Below, piece after piece: positions 8,527 to 60,375 of a DNA stretch of 64,000 nt (position 1 is its first letter; every line of letters starts with the position of its first letter). The DNA comes from a virus. The stretch spans positions 32,001 through 96,000 of the IMG/VR virus record IMGVR_UViG_3300008448_000004; one strand, 5' to 3'. Both the position numbers and the translations under genes were made by a program. The notes under the pieces were generated by a model, which was not told the DNA's origin, did not search any database, and was given only the letters and a program-made list of their open reading frames with translations.

Positions 8527-9414
8527 TTAAGCATTTTGGTTTTTAGTATACTCGGCGTAATGCGCTTCAGCTCGCTTAGTCTTCCAATCAGCTGTTTTAG
8601 TTTCCCATTCGTATACTTCTTCGATAAACTGATCAAGTCTCATAGCTGTTAATTCGTAAGTTCGAAGGCTCTTCGGACCACCTTCAACTTCTACGCGATA
8701 TTTTATACCGACTTTACCTATAATCTTATACGAATTAATATAGGTGTATTCGTAGTTACCACGTCCGTACTGAAGTTGTGCGGTGCCTGGCTTCTCTTCA
8801 AGTATACGTTTGTCTTCTTGCCAGTTAATCTCTTTGTAGGGCTTTAGGGTAAACTTAACACCTATCTTCCTATACTCTGCTTTCTTCTGTACTGCCATAT
8901 CTGACTCTACCTGACGAACACTTCGGTTGAGCGTTTGAATCTCTTCCCAGATAGGAGCTATTTCACTCTCTGTAGCATCGTAGGCATGGCTCCAGTTATT
9001 AAGGAATTCATTAGCTATGGCACTAAAGTTCTTTCCTACTTCTCCGACTAGCTTCATATAGGTAAGTTCAGCATTATAGCCGACTTGTATACTGCTCTCT
9101 CCATCAAACCGAAGATTACAGTACTCTTCATTTTTACCTTCGCTACGCCAGTTACGTTCTTTTCGAAGTTCTACCTGACGAGTCCATCGTGATTTGCTTT
9201 CCATATTAACTGAGATGTTAATTGCGGAAGAGTTGGACATCTCTACTTTCAAAGGTACGTAGATTAGATCACATTCAGTTCGCAACCAGTCGGTAATCTC
9301 GGCAACTAGTTTTTCTTTTGCCGGAATAACAACTTCGGTGTGCATAGTTTTAGCTTTAAGCTCGAGCGATTCGATCTGAGACTTAAGGGCGTTGAGGACA
9401 ATTTGATTACTCAT
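8527..9414 (-). CDS. Hypothetical early protein (coiled-coil)
   Basis: 295 aa ORF downstream of its own promoter. Confidence 0.75.
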   Translation of the reverse strand: MSNQIVLNALKSQIESLELKAKTMHTEVVIPAKEKLVAEITDWLRTECDLIYVPLKVEMSNSSAINISVNMESKSRWTRQVELRKERNWRSEGKNEEYCNLRFDGESSIQVGYNAELTYMKLVGEVGKNFSAIANEFLNNWSHAYDATESEIAPIWEEIQTLNRSVRQVESDMAVQKKAEYRKIGVKFTLKPYKEINWQEDKRILEEKPGTAQLQYGRGNYEYTYINSYKIIGKVGIKYRVEVEGGPKSLRTYELTAMRLDQFIEEVYEWETKTADWKTKRAEAHYAEYTKNQNA

Positions 9415-11317: not shown

Positions 11318-11517
11318 GAAAGTATTGCTTTAAGCTTTAACATATCGTACTGTGCTAACATATCTTTAGCATTAAGTATCCCAGTCCTATCAGTATACAT
11401 ACGTGATACTTTTAATTCTTTAACCCATTTCTGGTAGTTAGCATCTAATTTCGTCTGTTCACGTTCCAGCTCAATCTCCTGTAAACGATCTAGATCTAGA
11501 GTTAATATACTATTCAT
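11314..11517 (-). CDS. Hypothetical protein
   Basis: 67 aa, overlaps the next gene by 4 nt. Confidence 0.6.
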   Translation of the reverse strand: MNSILTLDLDRLQEIELEREQTKLDANYQKWVKELKVSRMYTDRTGILNAKDMLAQYDMLKLKAILS

Positions 11518-11559
11518 AGAGGTTTATTTGAAATAAAGATAGGGGTTATCTATCAAATA

Positions 11560-11769
11560 TCAAACTGATTCTTGTTCGTGAGAGTTATCTAAGGATCCTA
11601 CCGTCTGGTATGCATCCCATAGCTGCTCTAAAGCATGCTCTAGTTGAACTTTAACATTTCTATTCTGCTTCGATACTGGATGATTCATACAGTGCTCATC
11701 TAAGGTACACATCAGTATATGTAATCGATCCATAAGTTCAAGATAGTGTCCGGCATTAACTTTTTCCAT
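11560..11769 (-). CDS. Hypothetical protein
   Basis: 69 aa ORF. Confidence 0.6.
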   Translation of the reverse strand: MEKVNAGHYLELMDRLHILMCTLDEHCMNHPVSKQNRNVKVQLEHALEQLWDAYQTVGSLDNSHEQESV

Positions 11770-14291: not shown

Positions 14292-15416
14292 TTATGAATT
14301 TTCTTCTTTATTCCAAAATGGTTTCTGGTACTTAGGTTTAAGAAGTTTCCAAATAAGCTCAGTCTGCTTTACTCTATTACCGCTCCACATAGCATACATT
14401 ACCGGATGCAGTTCAGGAGGCATATTATTTTGAACGTATAAAGCATAATCTTTCTTAGAAGGTTCTGGATCTTTATCTCCATACTTGCCGTACTTAAACG
14501 AGTCGTGAGCTTTTCCACATCTTTCATATATGCTATAGAATGCATATTTAAACTCTCCTATCTTATACCTAACCCATTTGTCAAACTCATCCGGTACTTG
14601 TTGAAGAAGTTTAATAATGTCTTCCGATCTTCCTTCTTTTAACGCTTCCCAGATATCAGTTGTAGCAAAGTTAGTTAGTAGACTATGAAGTCTAACATAC
14701 TCTTCGAACTTAATCTTCATTCTAAAATTACCTGGCTGAAATCTTAAGATAAATCCTTCTTTATTTGCTTCGTTTTTAGCTTTTAAACTTCTATATAAAT
14801 CAGGGCCAAAAGCAAAGTGTTGTTCAGTCTTGACTAAATCTTCTTCCGGTATTCCGGACATATTAAAGATTGCTTTAGCAGTAGTCCAATGTACCTCTTC
14901 TCCGTTGATTGTTGCACTTAAAAAGACTACCTTTTCTTCTCCATTATAATCTACTACGATTCTATTTTCAGGGTATATTATCTCGCAGATATACGCTGTA
15001 TTAGTTTCAAAAGCTCTTAAGTTGTACTTAGATTTAATAATCTCCATACCTTTAATAGCTTGCTCTGATATAAATGATCCTTTAGTAGCTAAATGCCATT
15101 CGTTATTATAGTAGAATAAAGTACCTAAAGAGCCGTCTACTTTCTCTTGAACATAAACGTAATCTCCTTTTTCCGGTATTTGATTAGGCCGTAATAACTC
15201 TTCGTAGTTAAAAAACTTAGCAAAAGAACTAGCTATAACATTTCCTTCTTTATCTAGAATTAAACCTCTACAGTTTAAAGTTATATCATCCCACTTCTTC
15301 TCATACTGGCATGTCCTTGAGTAGTTGTAGATAGAAAGAGGAAGGGTTGGATGATCTTGTTTGACTATCCACCCTTCATCAATATAACTGTTTAGTATGC
15401 TTAGATCGTATCTCAT
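14292..15416 (-). CDS. T4 Rnl1-like RNA ligase
   Basis: FAKFFN, motif I EKVDGSL, ATKGSF, EIIYPENRIVVDY, EGFILRF, KIKFEEY. Confidence 0.9.
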   Translation of the reverse strand: MRYDLSILNSYIDEGWIVKQDHPTLPLSIYNYSRTCQYEKKWDDITLNCRGLILDKEGNVIASSFAKFFNYEELLRPNQIPEKGDYVYVQEKVDGSLGTLFYYNNEWHLATKGSFISEQAIKGMEIIKSKYNLRAFETNTAYICEIIYPENRIVVDYNGEEKVVFLSATINGEEVHWTTAKAIFNMSGIPEEDLVKTEQHFAFGPDLYRSLKAKNEANKEGFILRFQPGNFRMKIKFEEYVRLHSLLTNFATTDIWEALKEGRSEDIIKLLQQVPDEFDKWVRYKIGEFKYAFYSIYERCGKAHDSFKYGKYGDKDPEPSKKDYALYVQNNMPPELHPVMYAMWSGNRVKQTELIWKLLKPKYQKPFWNKEENS

Positions 15417-15826
15417 AATTTGATCTCAAATCTATTTTTCATTTGCTCTAACTTCTCAGCAGGTACTCCATGCTCGTTAACTCCTCCATGCCTGTTCTCA
15501 ACTATTATACTAAAGACATGGTACCCGTACTCTTCTGCTAGCTTATAATACTCCTCCATTTCCCATTCCTGGGTAAAAGTATTCGATACTACAATCTCAG
15601 GATAGTACTGAGAGTTTAATTGATTATCTTTCATTCTCGTCTCTACTTCTCTCCTACACCAAGCATGAGCGTCTTTTATCTTAGATGGGTCAAAGTTATA
15701 GACTCCATCTGCTCCTATAAAATACTTATCTGCTTCACATACAGCATATTCATTCCAGATTAAATTAGCAAAAGTACTCTTACCTGCTCCTGGACAGCCT
15801 CTAACTAAAAATAGTGCTTTTATCAT
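15413..15826 (-). CDS. P-loop polynucleotide kinase-like (AAA_33) domain
   Basis: Walker A GCPGAGKST, EAD, VSNTFTQ..E, NEHGVP; translationally coupled to the ligase. Confidence 0.85.
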   Translation of the reverse strand: MIKALFLVRGCPGAGKSTFANLIWNEYAVCEADKYFIGADGVYNFDPSKIKDAHAWCRREVETRMKDNQLNSQYYPEIVVSNTFTQEWEMEEYYKLAEEYGYHVFSIIVENRHGGVNEHGVPAEKLEQMKNRFEIKL

Positions 15827-25804: not shown

Positions 25805-26242
25805 TGGTGGAGATGACGGGAGTCGAACCCGTGTCTCCGAAAGAGACAATAACACCAACGTTTCACATGCTTAGTACTGCTTTCGGGCCCGTATGCTAAA
25901 CTTAGGCTAGCTGGGTCTGTCTACTGCACCGTAAGGGCTGACCGGTTATGGTCGAATCCACCACCTTGTTTTAATTGACTACAAGGAAAACTACGGCTCG
26001 CAATATGCGTCCGGATGCCGTCTCTATAGCGTACGACTCGCTGTTGTGTTCTGTTCCTAGGCTCTCTACCGCCCGATGCGGACTAGGCTGCTACAGCGTA
26101 GTCGGCGCCTACGAAAGACATTAAGTCTTCGAAGGTCATAGTTGACATTTCGTCATTTGTTGTTTAGTATCTTCTAAGGCAGTATACTCAAATGCCTGCA
26201 TGTGGTATTACCTCAACATTCGGATCAATACCAAACATCCCC
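25805..26242 (-). ncRNA. ssrA: tmRNA
   Basis: 5' GGGGATG pairs with 3' CATCTCC-ACCA giving G3.U70; T arm CGGGTTCGACTCCCG; internal tag ORF ending ..GADYAVAA* (26083-26154). Confidence 0.95.
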
Positions 26243-54160: not shown

Positions 54161-54197
54161 TTGATGCTTTTATATAAATATGCATCAATCTAAAAAG

Positions 54198-54284
54198 TAC
54201 CTAGGGCGGGAATCGAACCCGCACGACCTTTTTCGGGTCAAAGGATTTTAAGTCCTTCGTGTCTACCTGTTCCACCACCTAGGC
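54198..54284 (-). tRNA. tRNA-Leu(TAA)
   Basis: Cloverleaf with long variable arm, loop CTTAAAA, A73, no encoded CCA. Confidence 0.93.
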
Positions 54285-54314
54285 ATACGCTACTGTTCTT
54301 TGACGTTTTTTATT

Positions 54315-54626
54315 TTATCCTTTTAAAATTTGTTTACTGCTCGATAACTTACTTTCAAGCTTATCACAGCGTGAATCTATTGTTCTGTAAATATCCTGTG
54401 CGATATCATCAGTCTGTTTTTGAACTTCGTTAATTCGCTGAAAGATATTTCCAGATTCGGTACTTATTGATCGGTAGATATGATCAGTGTTCTCATGTAA
54501 AACCTGTCTTAGGTCTCTGATCTGTGTGTTTAAATTGTTTACCCTAACGAAAGCATAAACAGCAACTGCTGCAATAGCAACAACCGCCACGAATGCTATC
54601 CCTAAACTAAATGATAATAGTTCCAT
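54315..54626 (-). CDS. TM plus coiled-coil protein (..DSRCDK..)
   Basis: Start re-placed at MELLSF (track start overlaps tRNA-Leu); paralog of 57480-57782. Confidence 0.65.
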   Translation of the reverse strand: MELLSFSLGIAFVAVVAIAAVAVYAFVRVNNLNTQIRDLRQVLHENTDHIYRSISTESGNIFQRINEVQKQTDDIAQDIYRTIDSRCDKLESKLSSSKQILKG

Positions 54627-54663
54627 AATTTGTTTCTCCTTATATGTCAAAGAACAGTAGCTG

Positions 54664-54745
54664 TGCTCCATGAGAGACTCGAACTCTCAAGCCTTGCGGC
54701 ACCAGATCCTAAGTCTGGCGTGTCTACCAATTTCACCAACGGAGC
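54664..54745 (-). tRNA. tRNA-Leu(TAG)
   Basis: Cloverleaf, loop CTTAGGA, long variable arm. Confidence 0.93.
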
Positions 54746-54750
54746 GGTGC

Positions 54751-54828
54751 GTCCCAGTTTGAACAGATAATGTGCTGTTCTCTCATTGCTCCCGTATACG
54801 ACACCTGCGTACCTCGTAGGAGTGGGAC
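54751..54828 (-). ncRNA. Candidate three-way-junction RNA of unknown class
   Basis: Stems GTCCCA/TGGGAC, CTCC-TACGA/TCGTA-GGAG and GAACAG/CTGTTC; ends 5 nt before tRNA-Leu. Confidence 0.4.
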
Positions 54829-54845
54829 TACAACATCAACGAGCG

Positions 54846-55388
54846 TTAATAGAGAATATTGGTTACTCCTGCTATTAACTGACCTTGTTTTTGAAAAGCA
54901 TCTTCTTCCCAAGGCCTCTTTTCATAGGTAACATTTTCTAAATTAAATTCTTCGCCTTTCCAGTATACAATTCCTGTATTTTGGTCATAGGAGATGTCGC
55001 CGTCTTGGTATTGTGTGAGATGTATTGTTTCGTGGGAAAGTACTTCGATAGCATCTTCTCTATCTAGCTCTGCAATAAACAGGTAGTATATGCCATTGAA
55101 AGACCTAATATGAGCTTTAAGTTCGCCGTCAAACTGCGACTTTGCTTGGTCTGAGAGAGGGTTAATAACAACGGTGATGCCTGTTAGTCCGGCTTGGTCT
55201 AGAGCTATGCTTAGAGCAGTGTCGTAGTAAGTAGGCATACTGTTATTTACTACAGAATTGTTAAACGGTAATTCGACTTGCTTATAAGGCTCTTCTTGAG
55301 TGAAGTTGTTAGCCATCAATATTCCCGCTACTATTAGCAGTGTAACTACTCCGGTAGCTATTCCAATTTTTTTCCAGTTTGATTTCAT
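54846..55388 (-). CDS. Membrane-anchored putative zinc metallopeptidase
   Basis: N-terminal TM, LSHETIHLTQY (HExxH), RPWEEDA. Confidence 0.7.
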   Translation of the reverse strand: MKSNWKKIGIATGVVTLLIVAGILMANNFTQEEPYKQVELPFNNSVVNNSMPTYYDTALSIALDQAGLTGITVVINPLSDQAKSQFDGELKAHIRSFNGIYYLFIAELDREDAIEVLSHETIHLTQYQDGDISYDQNTGIVYWKGEEFNLENVTYEKRPWEEDAFQKQGQLIAGVTNILY

Positions 55389-55404
55389 TGTTGATAATTT
55401 TTAG

Positions 55405-55510
55405 CAGCCAGGGGAGGAATCGAACCTCCACGCTTAAATTAAGCGGACACTAAAAGTGCCTGTGTATATCCTTCGGTAGTCATATGCCTACACGTTTTCA
55501 CCACCTAGCT
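55405..55510 (-). tRNA. Non-canonical tRNA-like gene (TTT-centred loop, long variable arm, 34-nt D-loop)
   Basis: Acceptor AGCTAGG/CCTGGCT+G, T arm GGAGG-TTCGATT-CCTCC, variable hairpin GCTT-AATTT-AAGC, anticodon arm GGCA-CTTTTAG-TGTC. Confidence 0.7.
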
Positions 55511-55523
55511 TTTTATGCCTTTA

Positions 55524-55733
55524 TTACTTGATAGCTTGGTCGTGAGCAGATTTACCACCACCTACGGAGACGGTATCTTCACTACCTGAAATTTTAGCTA
55601 CAGTACTATCTGTTGCGACAACTGAGCTGTCTGCTACAGCGGTGCTATCAGCGCCGGTGTTTTCGGTTGAAGCGGATCCTCCGCAGGACATCATGGCAAA
55701 CATAACGGCAATTGCAAGAATTGTCTTTTTCAT
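55524..55733 (-). CDS. Small low-complexity lipoprotein
   Basis: AMMSC lipobox, repeated DS(T/S)A/V. Confidence 0.65.
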   Translation of the reverse strand: MKKTILAIAVMFAMMSCGGSASTENTGADSTAVADSSVVATDSTVAKISGSEDTVSVGGGKSAHDQAIK

Positions 55734-55771
55734 ACTTTTTTTTTAATTTTGATTTGTTAATAATTGTAGAA

Positions 55772-55803
55772 TAAATATAGAATAAAAACTTCAGACTTCC
55801 AAC
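55772..55803 (-). promoter_or_regulatory. Bacteroidota sigma70-type promoter
   Basis: GTTG-N20-TATATTTA. Confidence 0.65.
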
Positions 55804-56711
55804 TAAAGGCGGGCTCCTACCTTATTTTTTATAATTAACGTATCATTCTGTATATCTGTACAAGCTGTAGGGGTTGGTCCTATCCACCAGGATGCTAAAC
55901 AACTACTGCCAATAGAACCCATAATAGGACCTGTTAGACCGTTACATGGTTTGTATGTGTAAAGTAAATTACAATTAGCATCCCATTGGGCCTGGTGTAG
56001 TAAACCAACAGTATGTCCTGCTTCATGAGATACGCATACTCTAGTTCGTAAAGCATTGTAGCTTAGTGTATTAGTAAATACAAAACACGGAGTATCACTT
56101 CCCCAAAACATACTCCCTACATATGCTACACCTGCTACTCCTGGATATATTTCATTAGAAGTGGTAATTACTACTCTCATTCTTTTTGTTATACTAGCTT
56201 TAAGGTATACGCTTTCATCTGTAGTAACAATTACATTAAATTTAACATAGTCTTTAGATACACTATCTAATATTGTCTGTATATCTGCAGGGTATAATCC
56301 ACTTGGTAAGAGCTGTTTCGGTATACCGTTATTCCAAGATGGGCTGTTTAAGTAGTATCCATCGAAATCTAATAATATAACTGAGCTAGCACCCGGGTTA
56401 TTCCCGTACGGGTATGGATCACAGGCATTACCTATACCATCACCATCAGAATCTAATTGAGTTGAATTTGAAACTTTAGGACAGTTATCATTTATATCAG
56501 GGATACCATCTTTATCAAAATCTCTTAATTTGGTCGATCCTCCGACTCGAGCCATTTCAAACTCTATTCTAGTTTTGAATGAACTATTATCTAGAGGGCC
56601 AAAATCACAAATTTCAACTTTAGGATTACTTGGTTGATTAATTTTCTCTTTAGTACAGGTTGATAGCACTGCTATAAAAAGTATGCAGCAAAGCAATAAT
56701 CTAGTGTTCAT
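55803..56711 (-). CDS. Lipoprotein metzincin protease with TSP3-like repeat
   Basis: LSTC lipobox, DFDKDGIPDINDNCP..DSDGDGIGNACD, HEAGHTVGLLH zinc motif, IMG Met-turn. Confidence 0.8.
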   Translation of the reverse strand: MNTRLLLCCILFIAVLSTCTKEKINQPSNPKVEICDFGPLDNSSFKTRIEFEMARVGGSTKLRDFDKDGIPDINDNCPKVSNSTQLDSDGDGIGNACDPYPYGNNPGASSVILLDFDGYYLNSPSWNNGIPKQLLPSGLYPADIQTILDSVSKDYVKFNVIVTTDESVYLKASITKRMRVVITTSNEIYPGVAGVAYVGSMFWGSDTPCFVFTNTLSYNALRTRVCVSHEAGHTVGLLHQAQWDANCNLLYTYKPCNGLTGPIMGSIGSSCLASWWIGPTPTACTDIQNDTLIIKNKVGARL

Positions 56712-56761
56712 TATAGTAAGGTTGTACTTATAATTAGTTTACAGCCTTAGCAGGACGTCGA

Positions 56762-57223
56762 TTATTTTTTGCATACTGAATCTGCAGCATAAGTCATCAG
56801 GGGGGAATTTCCTTTGTGTCTCACCTTATACCCCATCCCGGTTACTATACCTACTGCTGAAGTGAGAGCTTGGTTTGATTGGTATTTTGGGTCGGGATTA
56901 ATATCAATATCAATCCAGGTTGCTTTAATGTTTAATTCTGATCTTAGCAGTTCTGCTATTTCAACTGAAAACCAAACTTCGTTTAGTAGCCTTGGTGTGT
57001 TTTCTCTTTCTCTACCTGTGTTAAATTTTGAGAAAAGAACATGAGCTCCTTTTCCGGGCTTGTACAGCCCCACTACCAGGGCGTATACTGTTGTGAGTAA
57101 TCTATTTTGAGAATCGCATCCAATTAAAACTTCAACTCCGGGGTTCCTTTCTGTGTAATCTTTTACGTATTTAACTAGGTCTACTCTCTGCTTAGTGGAG
57201 AGTGTTTTAAACTCTCTTTCCAT
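56762..57223 (-). CDS. RNase H-like protein (YkuK/DUF458 family)
   Basis: VLIGCDSQ, RLL.EV..S.E.A, IDIDIN, GMG, YAAD. Confidence 0.75.
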   Translation of the reverse strand: MEREFKTLSTKQRVDLVKYVKDYTERNPGVEVLIGCDSQNRLLTTVYALVVGLYKPGKGAHVLFSKFNTGRERENTPRLLNEVWFSVEIAELLRSELNIKATWIDIDINPDPKYQSNQALTSAVGIVTGMGYKVRHKGNSPLMTYAADSVCKK

Positions 57224-57253
57224 AGTCTTTAATTTTTACGTTTTACCAATCAG

Positions 57254-57325
57254 TAGTCTCACCAAGAATCGAACTTGGATCCACTGCTTAGAAGGCAGTT
57301 GTTCTATCCGTTGAACTATGAGACC
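57254..57325 (-). tRNA. tRNA-Arg(TCT)
   Basis: Cloverleaf, loop CTTCTAA, A20 present. Confidence 0.93.
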
Positions 57326-57331
57326 AAAAAG

Positions 57332-57470
57332 GAAGAGTTGCTAACGAGCTTTGAATCTTACCTACGCACTGTGAGGTATCTCGTCTTCTTTGTTCGCATT
57401 GCCTGTTCATGGTGCACCAATTCCAGGTTGCCGTGCGTGTCAGTGTTATAACAACTCTTCAAATCGTTTC
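57332..57470 (-). ncRNA. Candidate rod-like structured RNA (~139 nt)
   Basis: Terminal GAAGAGTTG/CAACTCTTC, inner ACGCAC/GTGCGT and CCTG/CAGG stems; no ORF; abuts tRNA-Arg. Confidence 0.45.
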
Positions 57471-57479
57471 GTTATATTC

Positions 57480-57782
57480 TTATCTATTTTGATCTCCTGC
57501 TTTTTTAATAGCAAGGATTGCTTTATCTACTCTTGAATCAACTTTCTTAGAGAGTTCTTGAATTTTTTGATCTGTACTTTTTGATACACTTCCTAGAGTT
57601 TCTGTTATATCTCTTATATCTTCTCTAAATGCTCTAACTTCATCTCTCATCTTTCTATGATCTATAACTACGTATATAACCGTAACAATCATTATACCTA
57701 AAAGAAACATTGAGATTGGGTGTGGTAGTGATGATACTACTACTTCATCAGAAAAACCAGGAAGTGTTTGTAACAGATACAT
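57480..57782 (-). CDS. TM plus coiled-coil protein (..DSRVDK..)
   Basis: Paralog of 54315-54626. Confidence 0.6.
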   Translation of the reverse strand: MYLLQTLPGFSDEVVVSSLPHPISMFLLGIMIVTVIYVVIDHRKMRDEVRAFREDIRDITETLGSVSKSTDQKIQELSKKVDSRVDKAILAIKKAGDQNR

Positions 57783-57961
57783 AATCTTTAATTTTTGGTT
57801 TATAAAAAGGTATAGTACACTCTTAATATTGACTCCGACTCTTTTTCAAGCCAGCACCTCCGAAATGACGCTGACGTTGGGATAGGAGAGTCTAACCTTT
57901 TTTCAAAGTTAAACAATAGAATTGAACTATAACACAACTCTATATCGAAAGCATACTATTG

Positions 57962-58032
57962 TGGATGATACTGGAATCGAACCAGCGCTTCAAGAGTCGG
58001 AGTCTCGCGTCCTGCCATTAGACGAATCACCC
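57962..58032 (-). tRNA. tRNA with CCG anticodon (nominally Arg), Glu/Gln-like body
   Basis: GGGTGAT TC GTCT AATGGC AGGAC G CGAGA CTCCGAC TCTTG AAGC GCTGG TTCGATT CCAGT ATCATCC A. Confidence 0.85.
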
Positions 58033-58057
58033 ATCAGATCTGAAAAGATCTTTTCTG

Positions 58058-58131
58058 TTGACCCTGCTGGACTCGAACCAGCTACCCGCAGATTATGAGT
58101 CTGCTGCTCTAACCTGGTGAGCTAAGGGTCA
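58058..58131 (-). tRNA. tRNA(CAT), most like Ile2
   Basis: Loop CTCATAA, no GGG/CCC initiator stem, body resembles bacterial tRNA-Ile2 (..CTTAGCTCA..GCTGGTTCGAGTCCAGCAGGG). Confidence 0.85.
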
Positions 58132-58208
58132 CTGTTAATATTTTAAATATAGTGACTATTTATAAATATACAAACGGTTTCAGTATCTTTAACTTAAATT
58201 TTTAAAAC

Positions 58209-58376
58209 ATGAAAGAACAAGTATTAGGCCTAGTAAGACACGCTTTAACTTTTGTCGGCGGTATTATCGTCGCTAAAGGACTTCTTGACGAGGCTCTTTT
58301 TCAAGAAGTACTCGGCGGAGTTATGACTCTAGTCGGTGCTGTTTGGTCAATTGCTTCTAAGAAGAAAGCAGCTTAA
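58209..58376 (+). CDS. Small two-TM holin-like protein (55 aa, not in ORF track)
   Basis: MKEQVLGLVRHALTFVGGIIVAKGLLDEALFQEVLGGVMTLVGAVWSIASKKKAA*, with own CTATTTATA motif and terminator. Confidence 0.75.
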   Translation: MKEQVLGLVRHALTFVGGIIVAKGLLDEALFQEVLGGVMTLVGAVWSIASKKKAA

Positions 58377-58399
58377 TCTAACTGTTCTCACTTTTTAAT

Positions 58400-58426
58400 G
58401 AGCCGGCTTTATGCCGGCTTTTTTTT
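58400..58426 (+). terminator. Intrinsic terminator of the plus-strand holin-like gene
   Basis: AGCCGGC TTTAT GCCGGCT TTTTTTT. Confidence 0.8.
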
Positions 58427-58427
58427 G

Positions 58428-58499
58428 TACTCGGTACGGGAATCGAACCCGTATCTTATCCGTGAAAGGGATACGTCCTAACCGTTAGACGAACTGAGC
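58428..58499 (-). tRNA. tRNA-Glu(TTC)
   Basis: Cloverleaf, loop CTTTCAC. Confidence 0.93.
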
Positions 58500-58502
58500 G
58501 TG

Positions 58503-58573
58503 TTACTCCGACTGGGCTCGAACCAGGAACTGCAGAATCAAAATCTGTCGTGTTACCATTACACCACGGAGCA
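58503..58573 (-). tRNA. tRNA-Gln(TTG)
   Basis: Cloverleaf, U1-A72, loop TTTTGAT. Confidence 0.92.
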
Positions 58574-58579
58574 ATGTAG

Positions 58580-58651
58580 TAGAGTAGACAGGGCTCGAAC
58601 CTGCACGCACTTGCTCCCAAAGCAAGGGACCTACCATTGGTCAACTACTCT
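58580..58651 (-). tRNA. tRNA-Pro(TGG)
   Basis: Cloverleaf, loop TTTGGGA. Confidence 0.9.
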
Positions 58652-58656
58652 ATTAG

Positions 58657-58728
58657 AGCTCCCATCCGGAATCGAACCGAATTATCTTGATTACAAGTCA
58701 AGTGCATCGCCTGCAATGCTTTGGGAGC
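58657..58728 (-). tRNA. tRNA-Thr(TGT)
   Basis: Cloverleaf, loop CTTGTAA. Confidence 0.9.
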
Positions 58729-58734
58729 TGTTAG

Positions 58735-58807
58735 CGCGGATGGTAGGACTCGAACCTACAACCTTCGGTTTTGGAGACCGCAACTCTACCAATTGAGCTA
58801 CACCCAC
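58735..58807 (-). tRNA. tRNA-Trp(CCA)
   Basis: Cloverleaf, loop CTCCAAA, G73. Confidence 0.93.
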
Positions 58808-59504: not shown

Positions 59505-60375
59505 AAAACGACCTGAGACTACAGTCTTTATGTTAACTCTTTTGCAGCATTATTGATTCTCTGCTTGTCCAGTACCTTTTGAGCACTATGTTAACAATGC
59601 CGGTTGTTAGGTCAACCACCCCTTGAGGTGCTTTTATTGTGGTCTACTCTCTTCTTACTCTAACCGTTCTACCCTGCCGGGCAGATAAGTCCTTGCGGGA
59701 CTACGATCTTTTCATAAGAATCATTATTGGCTTGCGACCTTTAATGGCAATGGACAACCCATTACTGTGTAGGCATCTTTCGACCGCACCTGGCAAGCGC
59801 TTAAGCTTATTATGTTATTGTAATTTTGCAATCCAATGCAAATAAGTTTGACTTGTGGATTATAGAAGTAGTGGCTTGCCCTGAGCCTGCTCAGCTTTTG
59901 GCCGAGTTGATACTCAACTACTCCTTGAGATGTCCCCATCTCGGTTAACTTTAGACTACTTCATTACAACACCTTGGTAGGTAATCGTAAAGGATATTAG
60001 CAGCACCACCTGTTCTACATCTTACCTTTCGGTTTTAAGTACCCTTTCAGTTCTGGGCGTCGCAATAATATGGTTGGATAAACTATATGTCTTGCATGCA
60101 CCCTTCGGGTTAATCTTATTGCTCTTCCGAGCTCAACCAAACGACCCACATCGCTTAGTCTACCAACCACTTTCCCTACAGTGTTACCCTCAGTACTAAA
60201 GGTCAGTAGATATCCCGATTGCATACTCGAGCTCCTTCCGAAAGGAGCCGCAGATCCACTCAGTCAAATGAATCCACTTTATACCGGTTTCCCGGTTTAT
60301 TTAACGACTATATGCCGCCGACTGCTATTTACTACCGATCTTACTCTCGCAAGCGATTTCAGACCTTCGAAGGGA
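59505..60375 (-). ncRNA. Large structured ncRNA, GOLLD-like candidate (~870 nt, ends approximate)
   Basis: No credible ORF; many tetraloop hairpins (ACCGG-GAAA-CCGGT, GCTCCT-TTCG-GAAGGAGC, ACC-GAAA-GGT, GTCCC-GCAA-GGAC); own promoter and boxA; next to a tRNA array. Confidence 0.65.

Follow-up and report, generated by a model that had tools for sequence, protein, structure and literature searches.

Besides supplementing codons, tRNA genes of phages are now known to counteract defences that cut tRNA. Phage tRNA-Lys variants defeat PARIS, and the nuclease-resistant tRNA-Lys of phage T5 neutralises it (PMC11464382), and in phage T4, Pnkp and Rnl1 repair tRNA-Lys that has been cut by PrrC (PMC2610378). 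Departures from the standard tRNA shape are found in allo-tRNAs, which have an 8/4 or 9/3 acceptor/T layout and are charged with serine while bearing non-serine anticodons (PMC5389517), and in the Bacillus cereus tRNA-Other, a small tRNA-like RNA that a complex of LysRS1 and LysRS2 charges (cited in PMC5389517). Here we analysed a tRNA-like RNA gene of 106 nucleotides (nt) at positions 55405..55510, minus strand, of a 64,000-nt stretch of freshwater phage DNA (the window), which comprises bases 32001-96000 of the 180,934-bp IMG/VR virus record IMGVR_UViG_3300008448_000004, rated complete. The gene was delimited from covariance models, its fold and the map of open reading frames (ORFs), and it does not encode CCA. 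We found that, judged by fold and conservation, the locus is a genuine selected gene predicted to encode an L-shaped tRNA-like RNA, and that on comparative grounds it is a stripped-down offshoot of a family of phage genes with giant variable arms, the most reduced form here.

When compared with the described systems, the locus has in common with T5 a phage-borne RNA that bears a UUU anticodon-type loop and an altered anticodon stem-loop, and the phage, like T4, encodes an Rnl1-like ligase and a kinase. The tRNA-Lys of T5 differs in being a canonical tRNA of class I in which the anticodon stem carries point changes. Allo-tRNAs and tRNA-Other share with it a non-canonical tRNA shape and a long variable arm or odd anticodon features, and may be charged without a normal decoding role, but allo-tRNAs differ from its 7/5 layout. 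In its body the RNA follows ordinary tRNA-Leu, of which the window holds two genes, tRNA-Leu(UAA) (54197-54284, minus strand) and tRNA-Leu(UAG) (54663-54745, minus strand). The D stem with its flanks (UGGUGAAA...CAC), the T loop and a 5-bp variable arm with a 3-nt loop are common to both, and the acceptor strands are GCCUAGG in tRNA-Leu and AGCUAGG here. In contrast, tRNA-Leu has A73 instead of G73, an 11-nt instead of a 34-nt D loop, and a leucine anticodon that is absent here, where the anticodon loop has 5 nt. G73 acts against LeuRS (PMC9976931).

Fold of the RNA and its detection

All of the proposed base pairs (25/25) are standard and the five helices are intact, and an original prediction, made by a model from the letters alone, had the coordinates and the anatomy right. 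The 5' strand of the acceptor stem, AGCUAGG (55504..55510, minus strand, as are all parts of the gene), pairs with 55406-55412 in seven of seven positions, one of them U.G. It is followed by U8, G9 and the D-stem strand GUG (55499..55503) of a 3-bp D stem, GUG/CAC, and the stretch UGGUGAAA in this region is identical in the giant-armed relatives described below and in the tRNA-Leu(UAG) of the window, in agreement with the prediction of a leucine-tRNA-like D arm. The D loop of 34 nt (55465..55498) consists of AAAA, an inserted hairpin and GAAGGAUAUA, which holds the GG expected for the elbow contact. Within it, the inserted hairpin GUAG-GCAUAUGA-CUAC (55474..55494) is extended in the RNAfold prediction by a C-G and a G-C pair with one bulge, and its 8-nt loop contains the palindrome CAUAUG (CATATG in the DNA; hairpin core 55476-55491). 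The 3' strand of the D stem, CAC, precedes A26 (55461..55464); CAC-A is common to this gene and its relatives L004, L056 and L087, whereas tRNA-Leu and the Asn-type group described below have G26.

The anticodon-type hairpin GGCAC-UUUUA-GUGUC (55446..55460) has 5 bp and a 5-nt loop according to both the fold and the family alignment. In an alternative register it has a 4-bp stem, GGCA/UGUC, and a 7-nt loop, CUUUUAG, with the anticodon UUU; this loop requires the closing pair C31-G39 to be open, and the 5-nt loop is the more stable fold. The variable region C-GCUUA-AUU-UAAGC-GU (55430..55445) forms a 5-bp arm as a 13-nt hairpin, and its last U (U48) is positioned to pair with A15 in the tRNA-Leu fashion. 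L004 and L087, with arms of 76-77 nt, have the same sequence, CGCU...AGCGU, at the base of the arm. The 5-bp T arm GGAGG-UUCGAUU-CCUCC (55413..55429) has stems identical in all relatives, and the acceptor 3' strand CCUGGCU with the discriminator G73 (55405..55412) is followed by CUAAAA, with no CCA.

The minimum-free-energy fold (RNAfold) has -34.2 kcal/mol (z = -2.3) and recovers the acceptor, anticodon-type, variable and T helices as well as the hairpin inside the D loop. The nucleotides that hold a tRNA core together are present, namely U8, A14, A15 with U48, the elbow GG and the T-loop consensus. A 7-bp acceptor and a 5-bp T arm with a TPsiC-type loop are found, as in any tRNA, but the D loop is three times the normal ~7-11 nt, and neither register offers all of a 5-bp anticodon stem, a 7-nt loop, U33 and, at position 37, a purine.

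ARAGORN with default settings makes no call at 55405-55510. The Rfam tRNA model RF00005 covers all 106 nt at 27.3 bits, below its cut-off of 29 bits (E = 0.019 with 7 kb searched, 0.00058 with 211 nt searched), in an alignment that skips a 29-nt insert in the D loop, and among Rfam families, including tmRNA, YrlA and other tRNA-like models, RF00005 is the sole match to the locus at E <= 10. The gene thus falls below the detection thresholds of both tRNA finders, of which ARAGORN was among the checks proposed in the original prediction. When introns and lowered thresholds were allowed, ARAGORN forced a tRNA-Arg(CCG) that contains a 28-nt 'intron' and whose D and anticodon arms are poor, a model that we rejected. 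We also rejected a reading as an ochre suppressor (anticodon UUA, standard register), for which just 3/5 stem pairs form and which meets a standard genetic code in this phage. Annotation pipelines will treat the gene as empty intergenic space, and some freshwater phages thus keep tRNA-shaped genes that standard finders overlook.

Relatives in other phages and conservation

The RNA gene takes 106 of the 135 nt between two ORFs of the same strand. Upstream lies a 69-amino-acid (aa) ORF with a lipoprotein-type signal, MKKTILAIAVMFAMMSCGG (55524..55733, minus strand), whose stop is 13 nt ahead of the RNA gene and for which a Pfam search gave no match. Downstream lies a 180-aa ORF for a membrane-anchored protein with an HExxH motif (54846..55388, minus strand), which starts 16 nt past G73. 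As an anchor of synteny we used a 302-aa gene (55803..56711, minus strand) for a secreted reprolysin-like metallopeptidase or lipoprotein, identified by homology search and Pfam, which has six relatives in IMG/VR. In the distantly related phage L004, orthologues of the 302-aa gene (64% identity) and of the 180-aa gene (L004:3071-3610, 50% identity) flank a slot that holds two tRNA-shaped genes, and the gene studied here sits in the same position between its own copies of the two.

The first gene of the L004 slot, L004:2259-2426, is a tRNA-like gene of 168 nt with the same UGGUGAAA stretch, CAC-A, T-arm stems and G73. Its acceptor, UGUAAGG/CCUUACA, is changed in three pairs on both sides with pairing kept. 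Its D loop has 33 nt and has the 9-mer GAAGGATAT in common with the D loop studied here, and it carries a 5-bp hairpin with the loop UCGUCUC and a variable arm of 77 nt. Since L004 was found via a protein and not via the RNA, the resemblance is not a search artefact. Over the RNA core, 54/68 positions agree (79%), and 54/68 is also the highest core identity found, reached with the giant-armed subgroups L004 and L087. At 4-fold degenerate sites of the flanking genes, the two phages are 21-27% identical, with 29-31% expected from base composition; neutral sequence has thus been randomised to saturation between them. The comparison indicates that purifying selection has acted on the tRNA-like core during most of the time since divergence from L004, and with the core 79% identical despite saturated neutral sites, any loss of function would have to be very recent. 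Furthermore, the pairs 1-72, 3-70, 27-43 and 28-42 differ on both sides from nearly all relatives with pairing kept, and for 1-72 and 3-70 the double-sided change holds against every giant-armed relative except L062, which shares A1-U72. On this comparative evidence the locus is neither a chance match nor an old pseudogene, and the original view that it does not look like simple decay holds, given that every helix is intact and the core is kept across saturated synonymous divergence.

A search of IMG/VR and metagenomes for the shared T-arm string recovered two recurrent gene types, both with a tRNA-Leu-type body and G73. The giant-armed Asp-type genes have 104-170 nt, the loop YYGUCUC and a variable arm of 36-97 nt that bears a conserved UUGA(A)CCAC motif (UUGACCAC); of the 37 pairs in their consensus fold, 11 show compensatory double changes, and an Rfam search with the family gave no match at E <= 1. 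Besides the L004 gene, examples are L056:3262-3418, L065:1924-2082, L087:594-747 and L089:1024-1181, with shorter forms in L096 (121 nt) and L128/L133 (104 nt). Preserved in the loop are G34, U35, C36 and C38, which together with the G73 of these genes are the five strong aspartate determinants (PMC9976931). Most members have C33 and all have U37, both poor features for decoding. Two diverged copies lie on the L080 contig, at 9068-9237 and 11508-11666 (minus strand; 131 and 173 bits), the former with a GAAGG/CCUUC T stem and an 8-bp D-loop hairpin that includes G.U pairs.

The gene studied here shares with this family the tRNA-Leu-type class II body (U8-G9, GUG/CAC, AGCGU ahead of the T arm), identical T-arm stems, G73, A26, the site of D-loop expansion, a weak first pair (A-U or U-A) and a location in a tRNA-gene region of a phage that encodes a transfer-messenger RNA (tmRNA) elsewhere. 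It differs in its loop, UUUUA against the 7-nt YYGUCUC, and in having a 13-nt hairpin without the motif in place of the covarying 36-97-nt arm. Most members carry a D-loop insert between AAA and GG, the exceptions being L062, L096, L128 and L133, and the insert here lies at the same site. The expanded D loop reported originally is therefore real and recurs in relatives, and, of the expected support from them, the shared site was found while the insert sequences proved to differ. The expansion occurs at this one site in seven distinct variants, five of which (5/7) contain 8-12-nt palindromes that are perfect (each with P 0.002-0.03 against shuffled sequences); the folding energies of the individual inserts are not significant, so that the palindrome statistic is the sole support for a structured insert. 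Self-complementary D loops could let two RNAs pair with each other, as judged from their sequences. The palindromes in the D loops of L058, L077, L087, L089 and L004 are GCGTACGC, TGCGTATACGCA, TGCGTACGCA, GGTAGCTACC and AGTTATAACT.

The second gene type, the Asn-type group, comprises long-armed genes of 84-105 nt with the loop CUGUUUA (anticodon GUU), U37, G73 and an encoded CCA. Immediately 5' of each lies a truncated class IIb synthetase gene, whose 291-aa product matches the catalytic core and nothing else of these enzymes (PF00152, 63 bits), as in L063:5753-5857 behind L063:4873-5748 and also in L054, L055, L057, L059-L061 and many metagenome loci. They have in common with the gene studied here the Leu-type body, the identical T arm, G73 and the variable-arm base ...UUUAAGCGU, and their loop differs from CUUUUAG by three substitutions, at positions 34, 37 and 38. 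They differ from it in encoding CCA, in having U37 and a D loop of normal size (10-12 nt), and in an anticodon stem of 5 bp that closes a 7-nt loop. In addition, the Asn-type group always follows the 291-aa tRNA-synt_2 core gene, whereas no class IIb synthetase-like gene was found in this phage, so that the enzyme-linked model of that group is not transferable.

A family covariance model was built from nine giant-armed genes of other phages, with the present gene left out. It scores this gene at 50.2 bits (E ~1e-12), the two tRNA-Leu genes of the window at 30.9 and 29.5 bits, true tRNA-Leu genes with an identical T arm at 40-43 bits and giant-armed members at 67-179 bits. In the alignment to the model the anticodon loop is 2 nt short, which bears out the original observation that the anticodon arm is out of register. 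Taken together, these comparisons place the gene inside a superfamily of Leu-bodied genes with G73, as the positional counterpart of a giant-armed gene. A chimeric origin, as proposed originally, is not supported, and the gene descends instead from phage genes that combine a tRNA-Leu body and G73.

Further copies were sought in several ways. The exact 25-mer of T arm plus acceptor has no match in IMG/VR, and a similarity search of the phage collection with the DNA returned ordinary tRNA-Leu matches only. A D-region pattern, GGTGGTGAAA..GAAGGATAT, gave 46 mostly chance matches with L004 as the sole relative, and a pattern search for the 180-aa neighbour gave no relatives; no closely related sister phage turned up in the collections searched. 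One IMG/VR pattern scan for Leu-bodied long-arm genes with CTTTTA gave no second gene with a UUU-type loop and G73, and it yielded the new short Asp-type members L128 and L133 together with many tRNA-shaped genes with odd interiors. In representative bacterial genomes, the T-arm pattern with G73 gave four matches only, in metagenome-assembled genomes of the Mesoaciditoga lineage (Thermotogota). Two further loci, L087:1877-1978 and L077:50-151, have an acceptor as in this gene (AGCUAGG/..UGGCU-G), but their interiors are unalignable and the former folds no better than shuffles, and we did not accept them as homologues of the interior.

Function of the RNA and competing explanations

The reading that we favour, at a probability of roughly 0.4 and thus tentatively, is that the RNA is a selected and processed tRNA mimic rather than a normal decoder, and that its partner is a protein that recognises tRNA. 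The gaps of 13 and 16 nt and the lack of any terminator-like site between the RNA gene and its flanking ORFs suggest that it is transcribed together with them; a sigma-70 promoter scan around the gene gave matches at chance level only. RNase P and 3' processing would then excise the RNA and a host enzyme would add CCA, as for the ten ordinary tRNAs of the phage, which is probable given the conserved frame, the tight embedding in the operon and the absence of an encoded CCA. The RNA would not be a standard decoder, because it has either a 5-nt loop or a 4-bp stem (an arm one pair short), G73 and an oversized D loop. Instead, it would act through binding by such a protein, which might also charge or cut it. 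As to which protein, our guess is that the likeliest are LysRS or PrrC- and PARIS-type defence nucleases directed at tRNA-Lys, because of the UUU anticodon stem-loop and the genes for an Rnl1-like ligase and a kinase. The T4 Rnl1-like RNA ligase (PF09511, 54.5 bits) is encoded at window 14700-15275 (minus strand) within a 377-aa frame, and an ORF for an AAA_33 kinase-like protein (window 15497-15814, minus strand) adjoins it, so that the two form a gene pair of the tRNA-repair type. A decoy for PrrC-type nucleases, as put forward originally, may fit with this pair, but the Lys-type loop was seen in no other phage in the IMG/VR scan. With these two genes, its tmRNA and its tRNAs for the commonest A-ending codons, the phage appears to invest heavily in tRNA protection.

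Several findings weigh against a mimic that belongs with the giant-armed genes. Both hallmarks of that family, the GUC loop with C38 and the variable-arm motif UUGACCAC, are absent here, which also fits a recent loss of function. The family-model score of 50.2 bits falls within the range of the Asn-type group (47-67 bits), and the inserted D-loop hairpin is thermodynamically weak, at -5.6 kcal/mol alone, with 6% of shuffles folding equally well; its own modelled folding energy is only suggestive. The opened loop CUUUUAG matches the CUUUUAA of E. coli tRNA-Lys at 6/7 positions (PMC11464382). Finally, the UUU loop is a single case, seen in this phage only within the IMG/VR scan, so that any selection on the loop itself would be conjectural.

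Among the other explanations, the one that survives best, unlikely as we judge it, is that the gene is a very recent relic of an Asp-type giant-armed gene, in which the interior of the arm was deleted, the loop shrank and the RNA became inert. The loss of both hallmarks, the singleton character of the variant and scores below the detection thresholds of both tRNA finders are what such a relic would show. Yet all 25 pairs are standard, and a deletion would have left a perfect 5-bp variable hairpin; the agreement of the core with L004 across saturated neutral sites, the lineage-specific double substitutions that maintain pairing and the exact fit of the gene into its tight intergenic slot also speak against decay.

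Only slightly behind it, and a speculative extension of the mimic reading, is the idea that the RNA is the lysine-type member of a phage tRNA-mimic superfamily on a tRNA-Leu body. It is doubtful, to a similar degree, that each member would bear the signals of one class IIb synthetase, with GUC, C38 and G73 for Asp, GUU and G73 for Asn and UUU here; for Asp- and Asn-type anticodons the normal determinant is G73 (PMC9976931). Equally conjectural is the part by which the members would lack decoding features, as seen in C33 or U37, in giant arms and in the shortened loop. If true, the superfamily would add a new class to the RNAs of phages, directed at host synthetases or at defences based on anticodon nucleases, with RNAs that are bound, charged or cut instead of host tRNAs, and small changes in the anticodon loop would retarget the family. 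The frame of acceptor, T arm, D stem and G73 is strongly conserved, whereas each phage has its own version of the anticodon loop, the D loop and the variable arm. The present gene is the sole form here with a Lys-type loop and offers a compact construct with which to ask what the frame alone does.

With about the same low probability, the gene may be an unusual but working tRNA-Lys(UUU), whose loop opens, which LysRS charges in spite of G73, and which supplies or replaces host tRNA-Lys for AAA codons; it could then be an isoacceptor that resists nucleases, as the tRNA-Lys of phage T5 does. In the opened loop, close to that of E. coli as noted above, U33 and A37 are in place (PMC11464382), and the anticodon is the main source of lysine identity (PMC9976931). 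Among the codons tabulated for the phage, AAA is the commonest (47 per 1000), its own tRNAs read its frequent A-ending codons TTA, CTA, AGA, GAA and CAA, and the whole phage genome has no ordinary tRNA genes other than the ten, none of which is for Lys, Asp or Asn. The repair-type ligase and kinase would also suit such a tRNA. However, the anticodon stem in this register has just 4 bp and the more stable fold closes a 5-nt loop, and G73 lowers lysine acceptance, A73 being the lysine discriminator (PMC9976931). A 34-nt D loop and a class II body are unknown for tRNA-Lys, ARAGORN rejects the gene and its Rfam score is below threshold. Moreover, the IMG/VR scan contained no second Leu-bodied UUU gene, and the related phages checked with ARAGORN have no tRNA-Lys.

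A still less probable explanation is that the fold is a processing or stability signal only, which recruits RNase P and 3' enzymes to cut the mRNA between the lipoprotein and 180-aa genes and releases an RNA without a role of its own. The embedding of the gene between same-strand ORFs with short gaps and no terminator would suit it, and so would the many tRNA-shaped genes of related phages in which the interior is hypervariable and the acceptor/T/D frame constant. RNase P requires an acceptor/T minihelix only, but the D stem, the nucleotides for tertiary contacts and the anticodon-type and variable stems have all been kept, and the equivalent in L004 retains a conserved 77-nt arm.

Two of the roles put forward originally, a serine-accepting tRNA that inserts serine at lysine codons and a D-loop insert that is spliced out, are very improbable: serine determinants exist in the long variable arm, G73 and G2-C71 (PMC9976931), and allo-tRNAs set a precedent for serine charging with non-serine anticodons (PMC5389517), but of G1-C72 and G2-C71, both conserved in bacterial tRNA-Ser, the first pair is replaced by A1-U72 (PMC9976931), the D arm and A15/U48 are of the Leu type, conversion of a tRNA-Leu into a tRNA-Ser took eight changes (cited in PMC9976931), the 7/5 layout is unlike the 8/4 or 9/3 of allo-tRNAs (PMC5389517), mistranslation of the most used codon would be costly to the phage, and splicing lacks a visible motif, with inserts that differ between relatives at the same site and an ARAGORN intron model that is a poor fit at low thresholds. 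G73 as a sign of serine identity is not supported, since in relatives it goes with GUC or GUU anticodons, its cognate Asp/Asn-type setting (PMC9976931).

Surroundings of the gene and other tRNA-shaped genes

The phage genome has 37.5% G+C and uses the standard genetic code, with TAA as the stop codon at 125/164 long ORFs. ARAGORN finds ten ordinary tRNA genes on the same strand as the RNA gene, spanning 54197-58807 (minus strand), with the set Leu-UAA, Leu-UAG, Arg-UCU, Arg-CCG, Met, Glu, Gln, Pro, Thr and Trp. Upstream of this array, window 59510-59925 (minus strand) matches the GOLLD RNA model over its full length (260.5 bits). The tmRNA of the phage is at window 25805-26242 (minus strand; 65 bits with Rfam), where ARAGORN makes no call in the window, and tmRNAs near tRNA-like genes are also seen in the relatives L003, L004, L056, L058 and L089. 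The 302-aa metallopeptidase bears a thrombospondin type 3 repeat, and a PF04308 RNase H-like protein is encoded nearby (56762-57223, minus strand).

Just 5' of the tRNA-Arg(UCU) at 57253-57325, a stretch of ~105 nt (window 57346-57450, minus strand) has 74-75% identity to L004:2827-2930 and L003:8450-8534, and L003:8450-8585 and L004:2835-2969 are 84% identical to each other. These counterparts directly precede tRNA-shaped genes (L004:2960-3058 and L003:8568-8655). The stretch, which has no Rfam match, may be an unknown structured RNA or a leader.

A second family of tRNA-shaped genes has the constant frame AGUCAGG-UG-GCG-GAAUUGGU..A-CGC ... GCAGG-UUCGAAU-CCUGU-CCUGACU-A73. It keeps the tRNA-Leu D arm and A73, and a hypervariable interior (86-143 nt) replaces the anticodon and variable arms. 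Its loci include L004:2960-3058, L084:2592-2689, L087:1077-1169, 1730-1870 and 1985-2127, and others in L116, L117, L122, L123 and L130, with the copies in L087 arranged in tandem. In the tRNA cluster of another relative, ARAGORN reports a tRNA with a four-base anticodon (aaaa) at L089:1374-1447.

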